IMG/VR virus record: IMGVR_UViG_2724679138_000003
Strand: one strand, 5' to 3'
Origin: a virus
Lineage: Duplodnaviria; Heunggongvirae; Uroviricota; Caudoviricetes
Length of the DNA stretch: 36,469 nt
Part shown: in pieces, positions 19,670 to 31,719 of the stretch
Layout: each line of letters opens with the position of its first letter
Numbering within the stretch: position 1 is the stretch's first letter
The notes under the pieces: generated by a model
What the model saw: only the letters and a program-made list of their open reading frames with translations
Told to the model about the DNA's origin: nothing
Database searches by the model: none
Made by a program: the position numbers and the translations under genes

Positions 19670-20131
19670 TCATCGAAGGCATTGCGTCCTGATGTATTCC
19701 TGCAGATAGTTAACCTGCGCGGTTATCTTGTCGATTCCACTTCGGAGACGGTAATAATTGAGTTCAGCATCTGCTGTAAGTCCTGGGCTTTCTCCATCGC
19801 CCATGCTGCTGGCTCCGGTCGTTGACTTTGCACAGGTGGCGGCGACTTGCAGGCGCTTACGCCCAGCAGAAACATCAGCACGGAGACTTTCGATAGTCGC
19901 GTTAGCATCAGCAAGCTCCTTTGTATATCTGGCATCGAGTTCTGCTACGTCACGTTGACGCTTCTGCATATCAGAGATCGTCGCCATAGCCGAATCTAAT
20001 GCCATAGCGTTTTCGTCGCGCTGTTTTTTGTATTCAATGGCTTTATTGTGGTAATGATTAGCTGACCAGACAAGACCACCAGCGACACAAGCAATAAACG
20101 TTAAAATGAGCGCCCAATAACTCATCTTCAT
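19670..20131 (-). CDS. Spanin inner-membrane subunit (Rz-like)
   Basis: 153 aa, N-terminal TM segment (YWALILTFIACVAGGLVW) then coiled-coil; start overlaps the endolysin stop (ATGA). Confidence 0.8.
   Translation of the reverse strand: MKMSYWALILTFIACVAGGLVWSANHYHNKAIEYKKQRDENAMALDSAMATISDMQKRQRDVAELDARYTKELADANATIESLRADVSAGRKRLQVAATCAKSTTGASSMGDGESPGLTADAELNYYRLRSGIDKITAQVNYLQEYIRTQCLR
19723..19908 (-). CDS. Spanin outer-membrane lipoprotein (Rz1-like), embedded in Rz in another frame
   Basis: MLTRLSKVSVLMFLLGVSAC: signal peptide with lipobox VSAC, then Pro-rich KSPPPVQSQRPEP; lies entirely inside the Rz ORF. Confidence 0.7.
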   Translation of the reverse strand: MLTRLSKVSVLMFLLGVSACKSPPPVQSQRPEPAAWAMEKAQDLQQMLNSIITVSEVESTR

Positions 20132-20742
20132 ACCAGCAGCGCCGCCCGCGCCTTGTTGTATCGGACCTTACGATCCTCAATACCGTTCAAACCGCCGTTA
20201 ATGATGCGCGTAACACGGTTAATATCGGCACCGTAGATCATGCAACCTTTAGAGGTGTAGAACCATGCAGCTGAGCGCGCAGCCTGTAGTTCCTGTTCCA
20301 GTTGTTCAGGTGAAGTCACCAGATCTAACTTCAGCGCCGCGCCACAGATGCGATAATTATGGAGGCCAGTGATTTGAATTAATCCTCTACCACGATATTT
20401 CCAGCCATCACCTGGTGCTTTGTTACCCAGTCGGTTGCTATACACCAGATTGGCAATAGCATCCTGACGAGCTGCATGTCCGGATGTTCTGCCAAGGGCA
20501 TCAGCCTGCTGCTGTGTGATCCTCTTTCCGAACGTCGCCACAAGCGCAGATGGTGTGTAGTTAAGATTTTCAACTACGGCGCTAAACCCCATCGACTCAT
20601 GGCCTACCTGAGCGATAAACATTGCCTGATCCGCTGGTGCTGTAATGCCGAATTCCTTCATCGCCGCATCAATGTGCGGAAACCAGCGCGCAGCCAGCCC
20701 GGCGCTAATACCAGCCGCCTTTTGAAATAATTGTTGGTTCAT
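20128..20742 (-). CDS. Endolysin, glycoside hydrolase family 19 (chitinase-like lysozyme)
   Basis: 204 aa; GH19 signature KYRGRGLIQITGLHNY; HESMGF motif; located between membrane proteins and Rz. Confidence 0.85.
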   Translation of the reverse strand: MNQQLFQKAAGISAGLAARWFPHIDAAMKEFGITAPADQAMFIAQVGHESMGFSAVVENLNYTPSALVATFGKRITQQQADALGRTSGHAARQDAIANLVYSNRLGNKAPGDGWKYRGRGLIQITGLHNYRICGAALKLDLVTSPEQLEQELQAARSAAWFYTSKGCMIYGADINRVTRIINGGLNGIEDRKVRYNKARAALLV

Positions 20743-21023
20743 TAGTGCCTCAGATGATCAACCAGACGTGCAACGTTGCCTCTGACAGCCACCAGCACGG
20801 AAAGAAAAATAGTGTTCGCCACGATAATGGGCCATGAGGAATGGGGATAAATCCCACAGAGATAGGCCAACGGAACAGCACTGTATGTAACAGTAATCAG
20901 CCAGGCTAAACGTGAAACCCAAGGACGATGCCGCGAATCACCACGACGATAAAACATCAGAGTAATAACAACACAAGCACATAACAGCGCATTTATAGTT
21001 GCTGTCGGGTCATTTAGCTCCAC
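20742..21023 (-). CDS. Small 3-TM membrane protein of the lysis cassette (possible holin/antiholin partner)
   Basis: 93 aa with three hydrophobic segments; GTG start at 21023 with GGAGG 5 nt upstream; overlaps the holin 3' end by 14 nt. Confidence 0.55.
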   Translation of the reverse strand: MELNDPTATINALLCACVVITLMFYRRGDSRHRPWVSRLAWLITVTYSAVPLAYLCGIYPHSSWPIIVANTIFLSVLVAVRGNVARLVDHLRH

Positions 21024-21396
21024 CTGAACCTCCCCGGCGCGTTATGAGCGCCACCAGCGAGCCGATATCCTGATTATTCAGGAACGTCAGGATTTTAACG
21101 GCTAAAGCAGAGACGATTACGGCACCAATAGCATCCAGAGGTTTATCACTGTATCCGGTCAAGTTCGCCAGCTTGGAGCCAACCAACCCAGAGCAAAGAA
21201 TCCCGGCAATATATGACACGATAAAATATGCCAGTCGGCGCGATGCACTCAGATCTGCAGCTGTTGCTATGTAGAATACAGCCCCTGCAAATGCGCCAAA
21301 TACAACGCCGTAATCAGTTCCGGTCAGCAGTCCATAAACACTGGCACCCGTCAGGGCACCACCAGCCAGCCCAGTACCGGAAATCGGATCGGACAT
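21010..21396 (-). CDS. Putative holin (Gly-rich multi-TM protein)
   Basis: 128 aa, Gly/Ala-rich hydrophobic segments and charged C-terminus (ITRRGGSGGAK); first gene of the lysis cluster; GAGGGGG upstream. Confidence 0.65.
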   Translation of the reverse strand: MSDPISGTGLAGGALTGASVYGLLTGTDYGVVFGAFAGAVFYIATAADLSASRRLAYFIVSYIAGILCSGLVGSKLANLTGYSDKPLDAIGAVIVSALAVKILTFLNNQDIGSLVALITRRGGSGGAK

Positions 21397-21443
21397 TTAG
21401 CCCCCTCTTAATTGCTGTTGGTCCTCTCAGAACGAGGGGAAAC

Positions 21444-21469
21444 AAAAAAGGCCGCATTAAGGCGGCCTT
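21444..21469 (-). terminator. Rho-independent terminator after the moron ORF
   Basis: Minus-strand AAGGCCGC-cttaat-GCGGCCTT followed by TTTTTTG. Confidence 0.65.
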
Positions 21470-21486
21470 GGTAAGGTATAGTTTTT

Positions 21487-22083
21487 TTAAGATAAACTTT
21501 GATTGATATACTCATGACACCCAAAAATAAAGGCGTTTTGTGCATCAATAAATGACTTTTTTTCTTCCGGAGTAAAATACCCTTTTGTAAAACATACTTT
21601 TAGCGCTTTTTGAAGATCTGCCGTCAGGGTTATCAACTTACAACCTTCCTCATCAGGCCTTATTAATAGAAGTAATTTATTTTTACTTATTTCAGCGGCC
21701 TTTATTGGAACTTGAATCTCCTCAGGGAAAACACCCTTAGCCAATATATCCATATTCTTATTTCCGACCAGATGCCATTGCTCAAATGTGCTGGCCAACA
21801 TAATTACGTCTGTCACATGCTCAGCGCCAGCAAAACGTATTTGTTGCGCCAATTCTTTATTAGTATTCAAGTGAGCCTGTAATGTGGCTAAGGCAAAATT
21901 TTCTTTGATTGCCCTGTATGCAACCCAACCAGTTATTCCTGCGGCAATAACGCCTGCAAGAGCAGTAATGAGTGTTTCAAAAGGAAAGGAAGAACTGATT
22001 TCAATTGGCGGTAATTTTTCTATTACCAAGGTCAACTCGCCAGTAGTTTTTTCGAAAGCGTACGGTACGTTTTGCCAAGTCAT
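21487..22083 (-). CDS. Moron: membrane-anchored protein of unknown function between Q and holin
   Basis: 198 aa; one predicted TM helix (TLITALAGVIAAGITGWVAY) near residue 36-57; strong SD (GGAGG); AT-rich relative to neighbours; flanked by hairpin terminators on both sides. Confidence 0.65.
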   Translation of the reverse strand: MTWQNVPYAFEKTTGELTLVIEKLPPIEISSSFPFETLITALAGVIAAGITGWVAYRAIKENFALATLQAHLNTNKELAQQIRFAGAEHVTDVIMLASTFEQWHLVGNKNMDILAKGVFPEEIQVPIKAAEISKNKLLLLIRPDEEGCKLITLTADLQKALKVCFTKGYFTPEEKKSFIDAQNAFIFGCHEYINQSLS

Positions 22084-22113
22084 GAAGCCTCCTGAGTTTC
22101 AGAGGAATCATAA

Positions 22114-22138
22114 CAAAAAAACCCGCTCAATGGCGGGC
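22114..22138 (-). terminator. tR'-like Rho-independent terminator downstream of Q
   Basis: Minus-strand CCCGC-cattga-GCGGG followed by TTTTTTTG, about 50 nt past the Q-like stop. Confidence 0.6.
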
Positions 22139-22189
22139 TCTTAATGTTGTGTTGCTCAGTTCGCTTTAACGTCCCGAGCCTACCACAAT

Positions 22190-22768
22190 TTAAGCACTTT
22201 CTTGCTCACTCTGCAACTTAAATCTGTCGCTATTTGTGCCGAATGCGTCACAAACTGGAGCGTACAGGATCGATTCTGCAAGACTTAGCCAAGTGTCAAT
22301 GCGTCGACGACAGGTGATCAGCGGCCAGTCAGGATGTTTAGCCTGCAGTTCATTGGCCATCTGCAACTTGCTCTTACGAAGACGATACCGGTCAACAATC
22401 ACGCTATAGAGCGATCGGTAGTCATCATTCATCAGTACTGAAGCAATGACACCGTCCACTAACAACCCTTCTTCATCTGAACAGAACGCCAGGCCGCTTT
22501 TATTTTTGCTGTTGAGAATTTCACGCAGGTACGCTTCAAGTTCAGGCTTGGTGATACCCGCTATCTTCATCCGGCGTAGCGCTTCATTGATAGCTGTCTT
22601 GGTGATTTTCCCGGATGCCAGAAGCTGGTTAAACATGTTTCCACCACTACCACCGCCGATATAAGACCAGCGGCCCCACATGCGCAACTTGCCTTGTATC
22701 CAGATACTTTCCAGAGTACGAAGGCGAACCATTTCACCTGATTTGCCAACTTCAGAAGGATTAATCAT
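22190..22768 (-). CDS. Putative late-gene antiterminator (Q-like)
   Basis: 192 aa; position between YdfU and the terminator/lysis genes; motif LRMWGRWS resembles the W-G-x-W motif recalled for phage antitermination Q family. No zinc finger, so not lambda-type Q. Confidence 0.5.
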   Translation of the reverse strand: MINPSEVGKSGEMVRLRTLESIWIQGKLRMWGRWSYIGGGSGGNMFNQLLASGKITKTAINEALRRMKIAGITKPELEAYLREILNSKNKSGLAFCSDEEGLLVDGVIASVLMNDDYRSLYSVIVDRYRLRKSKLQMANELQAKHPDWPLITCRRRIDTWLSLAESILYAPVCDAFGTNSDRFKLQSEQESA

Positions 22769-22782
22769 TTAGCATTCTCCAC

Positions 22783-23832
22783 TTACGCCAGTACGCCTAT
22801 TGCCAGCGCACGATCGATAAAACGAAATATCAGCTCCAGCTGGGAGCCATACTTCTCTTCAAATGCCACGGTATCCGCATGCAGCTTGTCGTGATGCTTT
22901 CTGCACAAAGGCAACACAAAGAGATCATGTGCTTTGGTTCCCATTCCGCCCTGCCCGTGACCAATCAGATGATGCGGATCGTCGGCTGGCATACCGCAGC
23001 AAGCACACGGCTGTGTCTTAACCCAGCGTGTGTATTTCTCCTTAACCCAACGGTGACGTTTAGGCAGCTTCATGAAAGATTCCGGAGACTCTGGATCAAC
23101 GGTGATGCTTACCACCGTCTTTTCCTGTGATGGGTTTTGTTGCTGGTGGGCGTGAGGCAACGGTGCAAGATTTTTTGTGCGCTGTTTCAATATGCTGGTG
23201 GCGGTCTGCTCTCCCGGTACGATGTCGCTTTCGCGGTACACCGAGCAGTTTTTTTCCGCTGGTAATCCCAGCGAGCGACGTAATACCACTTCCGGTAGCG
23301 CGTCCGCCACCTGATTGCGGACCGCCCACCAGGATAATTCAGCCAGAGATAATTCACGCTCCTGCGTACCGCTTATTGCGTGACCGATGACGTCAATCAT
23401 CCATGCTGACAGGTTTTGATGAGCAAGTTGCTCGAGTGATTCGGATGTCTGGTCACGCAGCTGGTTGTCGCAGTGCCAGCACAACACCATTGCGCCGGTA
23501 CCATAACGGTGAATAACGGTTTCGCTGTGATGATAATCGCCGTGTGGCCACTGGCAGGATTTAATATGGCGCAACAGCCAGTCAGACAATGCACCAGCAC
23601 CACCAGCAGCACGAATTACCCGTGCGTTACTGAAAAACGGCAGCAATGTTTTGTCTTCCACCAGCGGCTGGCGAACGGCAGGAACGACCCCGGACGGCAG
23701 ATTACGCATGCTTTTCGGTTCCGGCTCCACCAGTACCCGGGTATTGTGGAATACCGGCATGGATTCACGGCCCGGCTTAACGACCACCAGCCCGAGTTCC
23801 GGTACCAGAACAGGTCGAAGTAATACCCGCAC
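22783..23832 (-). CDS. ydfU: YdfU-like DUF968 protein (C-terminal CxxC / HxxGxG / HH nuclease-like module)
   Basis: 349 aa; C-terminus ...QPCACCGMPADDPHHLIGHGQGG...LPLCRKHHDKLH; GTG start with GGAGG; same size and position as Qin ydfU (recalled). Confidence 0.65.
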   Translation of the reverse strand: MRVLLRPVLVPELGLVVVKPGRESMPVFHNTRVLVEPEPKSMRNLPSGVVPAVRQPLVEDKTLLPFFSNARVIRAAGGAGALSDWLLRHIKSCQWPHGDYHHSETVIHRYGTGAMVLCWHCDNQLRDQTSESLEQLAHQNLSAWMIDVIGHAISGTQERELSLAELSWWAVRNQVADALPEVVLRRSLGLPAEKNCSVYRESDIVPGEQTATSILKQRTKNLAPLPHAHQQQNPSQEKTVVSITVDPESPESFMKLPKRHRWVKEKYTRWVKTQPCACCGMPADDPHHLIGHGQGGMGTKAHDLFVLPLCRKHHDKLHADTVAFEEKYGSQLELIFRFIDRALAIGVLA

Positions 23833-24658: not shown

Positions 24659-24814
24659 TTACTCCTCAGGTTCGTAAGCTGTGAAGACAGCGACCTCCGT
24701 CTGGCCGGTTCGGATTCGTACCTCGCAAAGGTCTTTCCTCGTTACCAGTGCCGTCACTATGACGGTTAAACAGATGACGATCAGGGCGATTAACATCGCC
24801 TTTTGCTGCTTCAT
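24659..24814 (-). CDS. hokD: Hok/Gef-family type I toxin (HokD/RelF-like)
   Basis: 51 aa, MKQQKAMLIALIVICLTVIVTALVTRKDLCEVRIRTGQTEVAVFTAYEPEE: N-terminal TM helix and conserved Hok C-terminus; matches K-12 HokD as recalled. Confidence 0.85.
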   Translation of the reverse strand: MKQQKAMLIALIVICLTVIVTALVTRKDLCEVRIRTGQTEVAVFTAYEPEE

Positions 24815-25279
24815 AGCCTGCTTCTCCTTGCCTTTCGGCACGTAAGAGGCTAACCTACATGTGTCTAGCATGAAATTGGCCTCAGATTAATGTTAAGCGT
24901 CTTGCAGGACGCGTAATGTTAACTGGGGCTTTTCTCTATCTGCCGTTGGTGTTCATGCCCGAGGCAGATAGCCTCAAGCACCCGCAGTCATTCTACTTAA
25001 CTACCGTTACCTCGCCAATGTGAAATCAGTCAGAAAGGCGATCCATAAGAACAATAGCAAGACAATAAATCGCCATTACAGCCGTAATAGCCAGCGCACA
25101 TTTGAGAACCAGCACCACAACCTCCTGTATTGGACGTACACCAGTCCTGATGAATATGAGGCTGTCTCGTCAGTGATTCAATACAACTATTGGGTATAGT
25201 TTCTCTGATTTTTTCTGTGGAAATGGGGCTCAACCACTAGTCATTTAATACGCAAAGTCCGACACAAGCTAACCTTCTA

Positions 25280-25303: not shown

Positions 25304-25623
25304 CTTGTGTAAAAATCCCCATACCGGTTGATCGCGCTGAATGTTAGGTTCATAAACGACACAGGGTACATCGTAATGCTGCTCTATTGCTTCGTAAGTG
25401 ATTCCCAATCGCTGCATCACTCGCTGAGAAGGAGTTCGACAACAGCCACTAAATAGTTGTGCATAGAGAACGACTGGAAAAGGCCGTAGGAACTTACAAA
25501 TCTCAATTCACGGTAGAGTATGATATGGGTATTCAATATAAATACAGCCCTCAAAGGTTTAAATATGAACGGAAGTGTTAAAAACAATCTATCGTCAAAA
25601 AAGTACAAGCTAAAAGAAAAATT

Positions 25624-25911
25624 TTGAATTTGAATCGCGAGCTTTCTAATGGAAAGATCACTCAGGCTGATTATTGTCTATACAAAAAACTGTTTGAAGA
25701 CTACATTCAGGTATTAACATTTCAACACACAAGAATTTTTGTGGAAAAAGATTTAATAGAACTATCAAATCATCGAAGTGGAGTATTCATTACAACTCAG
25801 CATGATACATTAGTAAATAGACTTGACAAAATTGATTATGAAATTGACAGATTAAAAAACTGTTTAAATAAAAAAATTATCGATTACACAAAATTCACAT
25901 CCCTATATTAG
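25624..25911 (+). CDS. Questionable AT-rich ORF (95 codons, no in-frame ATG)
   Basis: Track ORF starts at TTG with no SD. A 20-codon ATG ORF with SD (25565-25627) sits upstream in another frame and ends in A-runs. May be a frameshifted gene or non-coding. Confidence 0.25.
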   Translation: MNLNRELSNGKITQADYCLYKKLFEDYIQVLTFQHTRIFVEKDLIELSNHRSGVFITTQHDTLVNRLDKIDYEIDRLKNCLNKKIIDYTKFTSLY

Positions 25912-26004
25912 GATTTTCTAAGAGTACGACACCGTCACATTTAAATATTATTTGTAGAGGTAAAATGACAGCCTGACGGCGGTATTTCATTGCGAAATGC
26001 TATT

Positions 26005-31661: not shown

Positions 31662-31719
31662 TTTCTGGTGACGTTTGGCGGTATCAGTTTTACTCCGTGA
31701 CTGCTCTGCCGCCGTTTTT
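31662..31719 (+). ncRNA. dicF: DicF small regulatory RNA
   Basis: TTTCTGGTGACGTTTGGCGGTATCAGTTTTACTCCGTGACTGCTCTGCCGCCG followed by TTTTT; matches the K-12 DicF sequence as recalled (one mismatch at the 3' end); sits between ydfC-position gene and dicB. Confidence 0.8.

Follow-up and report, generated by a model that had tools for sequence, protein, structure and literature searches.

The analysed stretch of DNA, IMG/VR virus record IMGVR_UViG_2724679138_000003 (36,469 nucleotides; hereafter the window), is a lambda-like prophage, a near-identical copy of which resides at the tRNA-Thr/proA site of Escherichia coli D10. On its minus strand, between the late-gene antiterminator gene Q and the first holin gene, lies an open reading frame (ORF) at 21487..22083, which starts with ATG and encodes 198 residues (N-terminus MTWQNVPYAF). 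The ORF is very probably a real accessory gene locked to the slot that follows Q. Its product is predicted to be a bitopic inner-membrane protein, and the explanation we favour, tentatively and with a probability of roughly one in three, is a role in superinfection exclusion or abortive infection at the inner membrane. Cargo in the Q-to-holin slot is a known kind of element; the protein family itself is uncharacterised, and nothing yet shows a new mechanism. As an orphan family it is unusual: it is under strong purifying selection, stands behind four or more unrelated antiterminator families, is AT-rich everywhere examined and survives in prophage remnants.

An accessory gene in the slot behind Q

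A first-pass annotation, made from the sequence of the window alone, had described this ORF as a terminator-insulated moron, coding for a 198-residue protein with one transmembrane (TM) segment and preceded by a strong Shine-Dalgarno (SD) sequence. The present analysis bears out the description of the gene. A single hydrophobic segment covers residues ~37-56, and the SD sequence AGGAGG is found at 22093-22088, 4 nt 5' of the ATG. The AT-richness relative to the neighbours is also confirmed, with a GC content of 38.4% (GC3 32.7%) in the ORF, 47.8% in Q, 52.2% in the first holin gene and 50.3% in the whole window. The span 21444-22138 comprises the ORF and both flanking terminators, the upstream hairpin reaching 4 nt beyond it, to 22142.

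The gene is accessory, as had been supposed. E. coli F467 carries an empty site (locus L002) with the same Q and holin types, 153 bp apart. The spacer consists of the same leader hairpin followed by two terminators in tandem, and the window ORF sits exactly between these two. Among 5,426 complete E. coli genomes, the ORF is present in 32 (0.6%), and 30 of the 32 copies are at least 99% identical in nucleotides; by contrast, matches to the flanking ends of Q or of the holin gene occur in 246 genomes. The slot also holds other cargo, namely, an 85-residue ORF (L003), an unrelated 198-residue ORF on the opposite strand in E. coli Ec42 (L004 1909-2505; NZ_CP059119.1), HicAB together with a 161-residue ORF (L021), a Dam methylase in Escherichia phage LLS and a secreted-type nuclease in Pectobacterium. 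The alternative products tested, those of L003, L004 and a 188-residue ORF of Providencia, have no match in Pfam or PADLOC. No relationship was found between the window ORF and the L004 cargo of the same length. The latter product, another orphan at this hotspot, combines a soluble N-terminal half with three TM segments in its C-terminal part. The window ORF has several attributes of a moron: it is absent from an otherwise homologous phage, has sharp boundaries and a 3' terminator, and is atypical in base composition.

The position of the family gene is conserved across genomes. It lies between Q and the lysis genes in all 11 non-degraded contexts and follows Q directly, on the same strand, in 10 of them; the exception is Proteus faecis, in which a 311-residue opposite-strand ORF intervenes. 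The Q genes upstream fall into at least four Pfam families (PF06576, PF03589, PF06323 and PF06530), and the holins downstream to at least five families or to none assigned. Extra cargo, if present, sits between the ORF and the holin gene, suggesting that the ORF is tied to Q and the terminator rather than to the lysis cassette. Orthologs that are 70-75% identical are paired with Phage_holin_8 and Phage_holin_3_7, with Phage_holin_2_1 or with an unassigned gene of 100 residues, so that one ORF subclade occurs with three holin arrangements and no obligate pairing with a cognate holin is seen. Conversely, E. coli and Citrobacter prophages share the same holin pair and carry ORFs that are only 17% identical. 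Neither the window protein nor 33 of its relatives match the Pfam holin or antiholin families. A holin-specific antiholin was considered and is disfavoured, given the lack of co-variation with holin type and the empty site with the same lysis cassette. A conserved lysis component would be expected in all related phages, and L002 is without the ORF. The gene product is probably not a part of the lysis machinery.

Selection analysis speaks for a functional protein. In five orthologs with 70-75% protein identity (from E. coli, three named Enterobacter species and one metagenomic contig), the Nei-Gojobori ratio of nonsynonymous to synonymous substitution rates (dN/dS) is 0.06-0.15 over the full gene and stays under 0.3 in each sub-region, with synonymous sites saturated or nearly so. 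The ORF is therefore under purifying selection. In addition, it is 8-16 GC points below its own locus in 10 of the 10 hosts tested. Since the low GC persists despite saturated synonymous divergence, AT-richness is being maintained as a trait of the family. Low GC relative to the locus is a classical feature of phage cargo genes.

Tandem terminators and putative late transcription

The flanking terminators noted in the first-pass annotation were found at both ends of the ORF. Terminator 1, a tR'-type hairpin at 22142..22117 on the minus strand (GAGCCCGC-CATTGA-GCGGG), has a 10-bp stem followed by U7. Folded together with the leader that precedes it, it reaches -32.4 kcal/mol (z-score of -5.6 versus shuffled controls). 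Terminator 2, located between the ORF and the holin gene (21442..21469, minus strand; hairpin 21469..21448), has the sequence AAGGCCGC-CTTAAT-GCGGCCTT followed by U6; its 8-bp stem contains six G-C pairs and folds at -14.3 kcal/mol (z-score of -3.9 versus shuffled controls).

A putative late promoter, pR', is located upstream of terminator 1 at 22188..22216 on the minus strand and consists of TTGCAG (22216-22211), a 17-nt spacer and TTAAAT (22193-22188). It was read by eye; only 8 of its 12 positions agree with the consensus, hence it was not flagged by the promoter scan. Its -10 element overlaps the stop codon of Q, and its placement relative to Q is like that of the annotated P22 pR'/tR' pair and of a TTGACT-16-TATAGT site after the Providencia Q. 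On these grounds, we infer that TTGCAG-17-TTAAAT is the late promoter. Terminator 1 sits ~40 nt past the putative start of the late transcript and, judging from the terminator scan and the fold, ends a late-leader RNA of ~70 nt (22110..22181, minus strand). This leader (22110-22181) appears as a structured RNA, a hairpin followed by the terminator, and is kept at the empty site L002. An Rfam scan of the module recovered no RNA family, only sub-threshold matches to attenuator leaders that were driven by the terminators.

Between terminator 1 and the ORF there is a 5' untranslated stretch (22084..22109, minus strand) that contains the SD sequence. The U-tract of terminator 1 is only 33 nt from the ATG, and the sequence scan of the window detected no promoter-like site in this interval, which argues that the ORF is transcribed from pR' through terminator 1. 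It is likely that the upstream terminator is tR' itself and that the ORF belongs to the Q-antiterminated late unit, its expression being gated by Q and tR'. Of the 'terminator-insulated moron' of the first-pass annotation, the flanking terminators thus stand, while the insulation needs correcting: the upstream terminator would be tR', and the gene would be gated by Q, as is stx2, and would not be self-promoted.

Related loci share this arrangement. Among the five close orthologs, similarity starts at the upstream hairpin and extends as far as the start codon by way of TTTTTG(C/T)TATGAT...AAGGAGG; what lies 5' of the hairpin tracks the type of Q. The start codon, SD sequence and N-terminus are kept, and homology stops past the downstream hairpin. 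A hairpin resembling terminator 2 is present 3' of the ORF in three of the four Enterobacter-type orthologs. In seven Q-linked relatives, a U-tract hairpin of -12.6 to -16.8 kcal/mol precedes the start codon by 12-60 nt. An upstream mini-ORF with translational coupling, suggested by the conserved 'ATGAT' after the U-tract, was dropped from consideration, having no SD sequence and being inconsistent between orthologs.

The configuration recalls that of Stx phages, in which, according to PMC7547250, pR' is constitutively active and its transcription is terminated just downstream in lysogeny, the tR'-terminated transcript serving as the regulatory small RNA (sRNA) StxS. Pas sRNAs, in turn, adjoin holin genes in prophages of enteropathogenic and enterohaemorrhagic E. 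coli (bioRxiv 10.64898/2026.05.13.724894).

Decayed prophages provide a view of the gene outside its usual setting. The ORF is intact in four independent remnants (L005-7, L017/18, L026/27 and L028), two of which are without lysis genes. The Enterobacter hormaechei remnant L005-7, which has no Q, and the ~7 kb Enterobacter cancerogenus remnant L017/18 retain the ORF alongside lysis genes. In the Enterobacteriaceae remnant L026/27, both the integrase and Q are truncated, an IS3 element is present and the lysis genes are missing. Q and the lysis genes are likewise missing from L028, which keeps a terminator-like hairpin with a weak U-tract. At 5662-8335 of L028, a D12-class methyltransferase and, on the opposite strand, a 579-residue AAA_15/AAA_21 ATPase are encoded beside the family gene, an arrangement like that of a defence island. 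The upstream signals have changed in two remnants. In the Q-less L006 (5930-5990), the upstream hairpin is destroyed (-1.4 kcal/mol, z-score of 0.2, versus -12.6 to -16.8 kcal/mol elsewhere), and the ORF, its SD sequence, the U-tract, a lambda-type pR' -10 element and the leader are kept. In L026, there is no upstream hairpin, and an extended -10 element, TGcTAAAAT, can be read by eye ~30 nt before the ATG. The loss of Q and the loss of the terminator coincide in one clear case, L006. Although the remnants are few, the intact ORF in them suggests a use outside the lytic cycle and argues against a purely lytic or lysis role.

An orphan family of predicted bitopic membrane proteins

The window protein matches phrog_18859 of PHROGs v4, a family of unknown function, over residues 1-198 of a 198-position profile (E 7e-91), and the same family is the main match of all 44 aligned relatives. 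A word-indexed search of 5.8 billion proteins returned 11 clusters, from E. coli and Enterobacter; an exhaustive hidden Markov model (HMM) search of 1.84 billion cluster representatives returned 36 clusters at E <= 1e-3, the complete members of which are ~190-230 residues long. Named members are found only in Enterobacterales, namely, in Escherichia, Enterobacter, Citrobacter, Salmonella, Morganella, Proteus, Providencia, Pectobacterium and Pantoea; a locus search with a narrow alignment added three Morganellaceae loci. Identity to the window protein falls to 16-17%, at which level the N-terminal third is still recognisable. Residues W3, G5, P7, P25, F33, A55, N62, Q69 and R83 are invariant or nearly so across the family.

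The family is scarce among deposited phages. In tblastn searches of 50,697 phage genomes, the window protein had no match, and divergent queries identified only Escherichia phage LLS. In the LLS record (PQ299149.1), the family member is mis-split into genes 49 and 50 (coding sequences of 29 and 192 residues; L023 3969-4603). The true ORF encodes 201 residues (L023 3998-4603, starting at record position 38668), a reading based on the conserved N-terminus (MWQGIPF) and the SD sequence. A viable lambdoid phage, LLS can be obtained from a public source as HER 843 (PMC12315714). The family is directly testable, with one member in a culturable phage and an E. coli allele that is identical across many sequenced strains.

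In line with the earlier statement that the protein has no recognizable phage function, homology searches and structure prediction provided no significant match in Pfam, NCBIfam, PADLOC, the PDB or the viral structure library. For Pfam and NCBIfam, this holds for the window protein at E <= 1 and for 33 relatives at E <= 0.01; the profile search of the PDB gave nothing below E 0.02. Literature searches turned up no account of the family or of its accession, and no gene described from this slot.

All 44 family members examined have, like the window protein, a single hydrophobic segment. In the window protein, the segment is assigned from hydropathy and charge to residues 37-56 (TLITALAGVIAAGITGWVAY; codons at 21916..21975, minus strand), with a hydropathy maximum of 1.81 at residue 37. 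Its flanks carry one K/R and three D/E residues on the N-terminal side and two K/R and one D/E on the C-terminal side. The bias is clearer in the family means over 15 residues on each side: 0.93 K/R and 2.23 D/E N-terminally, 3.09 K/R and 1.02 D/E C-terminally. By the positive-inside rule, the N-terminus is therefore predicted to be outside and the C-terminus inside, a topology that we regard as likely.

An AlphaFold2 (AF2) model built from the 44-sequence alignment has a mean predicted local distance difference test score (pLDDT) of 83 and a predicted template modelling score (pTM) of 0.65. The divergent relatives from the exhaustive profile search were needed for this, since with 10 close sequences only the pLDDT was 41. 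In the model, residues 1-28 are of low confidence; they belong to a short, acidic N-terminal tail (residues 1-36) with the family motif W-x-G-x-P-F. A continuous helix (35-107) forms the TM segment and then a stalk, and helices 121-140, 145-167 and 172-197 join the distal part of the stalk in a four-helix bundle (~80-197). The protein is thus modelled as a bitopic inner-membrane protein in which a periplasmic N-terminal tail is followed by a single TM helix, then by a stalk and, in the cytoplasm, by the bundle. The TM helix is rich in small residues (AGVIAAGITG), and the conserved polar residues of the stalk (N62, Q69 and R83) lie 7 and 14 positions apart, as in heptads; these two features hint that the protein may form a homo-oligomer.

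Structural resemblances to other proteins are limited to E 0.03 or worse in Foldseek, with sequence identities of 4-13%. The four-helix-bundle sensor domains of Tar/Tsr, McpN, PcaY, NarQ and TorS are alike in generic fold only. Sensors of the 4HB_MCP type have a periplasmic domain between two TM helices, whereas the window protein has a single TM helix, a predicted cytoplasmic C-terminal domain and no Pfam match. The likeness is a generic fold resemblance and not membership in a sensor family.

Candidate functions

The interval between Q and the lysis genes carries Shiga toxin and conversion genes, so a conserved occupant of it is a candidate host-modifying or phage-competition factor. In our best explanation, the ORF is an optional cargo of the lambdoid late operon, placed between two tandem terminators past pR'. 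In the lysogen, it would be transcribed only by polymerases that leak past terminator 1, and the leaked transcripts would end at terminator 2, before the holin gene. After induction, Q-modified polymerase would pass both terminators and the ORF product would be the first late protein. The protein would then act at the inner membrane of the lysogen and of the induced cell against other phages. If the reading based on terminator leak is true, the arrangement would be a compact way to express one prophage gene at a low level without the risk of expressing the adjacent holin; if the gene is merely a dispensable late gene, the result would be an ordinary one.

Among known systems, stx2 and other lambdoid cargo between Q/tR' and the holin gene occupy the same slot, past pR'-tR' and before the lysis genes, and are likewise optional, AT-rich and transcribed by way of Q antitermination instead of a promoter of their own (PMC7547250 and PMC6266700). 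The window ORF differs in its unrelated product, predicted to be a bitopic protein of the inner membrane whose helical bundle is cytoplasmic, as opposed to a secreted toxin or a porin, and in its exact placement between two terminators that adjoin each other at the empty site. With classical morons in the sense of Hendrix and Juhala, exemplified by HK97 gp15, it shares the status of an extra gene absent from close relatives, the atypical composition, the 3' terminator and a membrane-protein product. A classical moron carries its own promoter, whereas none is detectable at the sequence level in the 33 nt upstream of the ORF or in the 12-60 nt of its relatives. HK97 gp15 itself has 62 residues and belongs to the tail gene cluster; no sequence relationship to the ORF is known or was found. 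The inner-membrane proteins SieA and SieB of P22 are also prophage-encoded, of similar size (164 and 192 residues) and act against incoming phages, but they have their own promoters elsewhere in the genome.

Several observations weigh against a role in exclusion or abortive infection. The profile of the family, compared by hhalign with P22 SieA and SieB, gave probabilities of 0.14% and 0.09%, respectively, and the Pfam SieB family was not matched. In PADLOC-DB v2.0.0 (2023 library), the window protein is without a match at E <= 10; among six divergent relatives, searched at E <= 1, four had none and two had weak, chance-level hits (GajB, E 0.0011; Cas2d, E 0.012). Among characterised prophage genes for exclusion or defence, most have a promoter of their own that is used in the lysogen, whereas no own promoter was found for the ORF and terminator 1 looks strong. 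Purifying selection acts on every region of the close orthologs, without the diversifying selection often seen in defence sensors, and an allele with a 1-nt frameshift (P0002, 31 contigs) indicates that the gene is dispensable in some strains. The Q-to-lysis region generally persists in cryptic lambdoid prophages, which may explain the survival of the ORF in remnants. Finally, topology, oligomerisation and terminator leak are all at the level of prediction.

A more specific version of the exclusion reading, which we consider doubtful, would make the family a hitherto overlooked class of prophage immunity proteins that borrows the constitutive late promoter and is fed by leak through tR', with terminator 2 shielding the holin gene, and is boosted at induction once repressor immunity collapses. 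As an oligomer with N-out/C-in topology, the protein would form a gate in the inner membrane against incoming phage, blocking or aborting the infection, and it would have been domesticated in Q-less remnants by terminator erosion.

Three other functions deserve consideration. The late membrane protein might be a general modulator of lysis timing, delaying or sharpening holin triggering through the membrane or its energised state and not through one holin. The ORF lies directly 5' of the lysis cassette, on the same Q-dependent transcript, in 6 of the 11 intact contexts, and its product is a single-pass protein with a small-residue TM segment, as are many holins and antiholins; moreover, the ORF and lysis genes are retained together in L005-7 and L017/18. 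Other contexts point the other way. In the remaining 5 of 11, genes intervene between the ORF and the holin gene (HicAB, the Dam methylase, the secreted-type nuclease and opposite-strand ORFs), while adjacency to Q holds in 10 of 11, and L026/27 and L028 keep the ORF without lysis genes. Together with the ORF-free lysis cassette of L002, the independence from holin type and the absence of Pfam holin or antiholin matches, this makes a lysis-timing role unlikely.

The second possibility is late takeover or counter-defence, in which the first late protein would disarm a membrane-associated system of the host, for instance a defence triggered by late proteins, or would remodel the envelope ahead of the build-up of virion proteins. 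This would agree with the place of the gene, first after tR' and Q-dependent in 10 of 11 contexts, and with the occurrence of a member in the viable phage LLS (PMC12315714). The N-terminal tail, TM segment and juxtamembrane helix are kept family-wide while the rest diverges to 17% identity, suggesting a conserved host partner. We nevertheless find this role improbable, because the ORF is intact in remnants unable to make virions or to express Q, one of them with an eroded upstream terminator, and is absent from 50,696 of the 50,697 deposited phage genomes when searched by tblastn with three divergent queries.

Third, the protein could be a lysogenic-conversion factor unrelated to phages, altering envelope physiology, stress tolerance or colonisation. 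Q-to-lysis cargo elsewhere includes porins and Shiga toxin, and the ORF shares the slot of such classical conversion genes, persists in decayed remnants and has hosts of many animal and environmental origins. Against this, the sequence shows nothing like a transporter, an enzyme, an adhesin or a toxin, most of the protein is predicted to lie in the cytoplasm and the gene is very rare in E. coli genomes (0.6%), so that we regard conversion of this kind as very unlikely. As for a chance or decaying ORF without function, with the tandem terminators and the short leader RNA as the only real features, the frameshifted allele and the occurrence of tandem terminators without the ORF could be cited in its favour, but it is effectively refuted by the selection analysis (dN/dS of 0.06-0.15 with saturated synonymous sites) and is also contradicted by full-length conservation over ~36 clusters at 50% identity from nine or more genera, by the conserved start codon and SD sequence and by the confident AF2 model obtained with the deeper alignment.

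In the window, the neighbours of the ORF are all on the minus strand. A DUF968 nuclease-like gene (22783-23832) is located upstream of Q, and Q itself (22190..22768; 192 residues) is of the DUF1133 / Phage_antitermQ type, matching Pfam PF06576 (E 3e-92) and PF06530 (E 2e-8) and PHROG phrog_753, 'anti-termination protein Q-like'. Downstream of terminator 2, the lysis cassette begins with the Phage_holin_8 gene (21010..21396; 128 residues) and continues with the Phage_holin_3_7 gene (20742-21023; 93 residues), a GH19 endolysin gene (20128-20742), Rz (19670-20131) and Rz1 (19723-19935). The two holin genes, of different families, overlap each other (20742-21396), and the pair recurs in Citrobacter and Pantoea prophages.

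Other loci of the prophages also drew attention. An Enterobacter ludwigii prophage with an ortholog of the ORF (L019 1-1833) carries, elsewhere in the prophage, a Pycsar-like pair consisting of a PycTM effector and a nucleotide cyclase. In the window, a hok/sok-type toxin-antitoxin is found at 24659-24983 on the minus strand: Rfam sok (RF01794) scores 115 bits over 24809-24983, and a 70-residue ORF (24659-24871) with a single hydrophobic stretch is taken as Hok-like from its sequence and position. A very AT-rich island (25500-25950; GC 0.28-0.31) separates the nin-like region from the early genes, and a gene for the sRNA DicF (RF00039, 72.5 bits) is located in the prophage early region at 31663-31714 on the plus strand.

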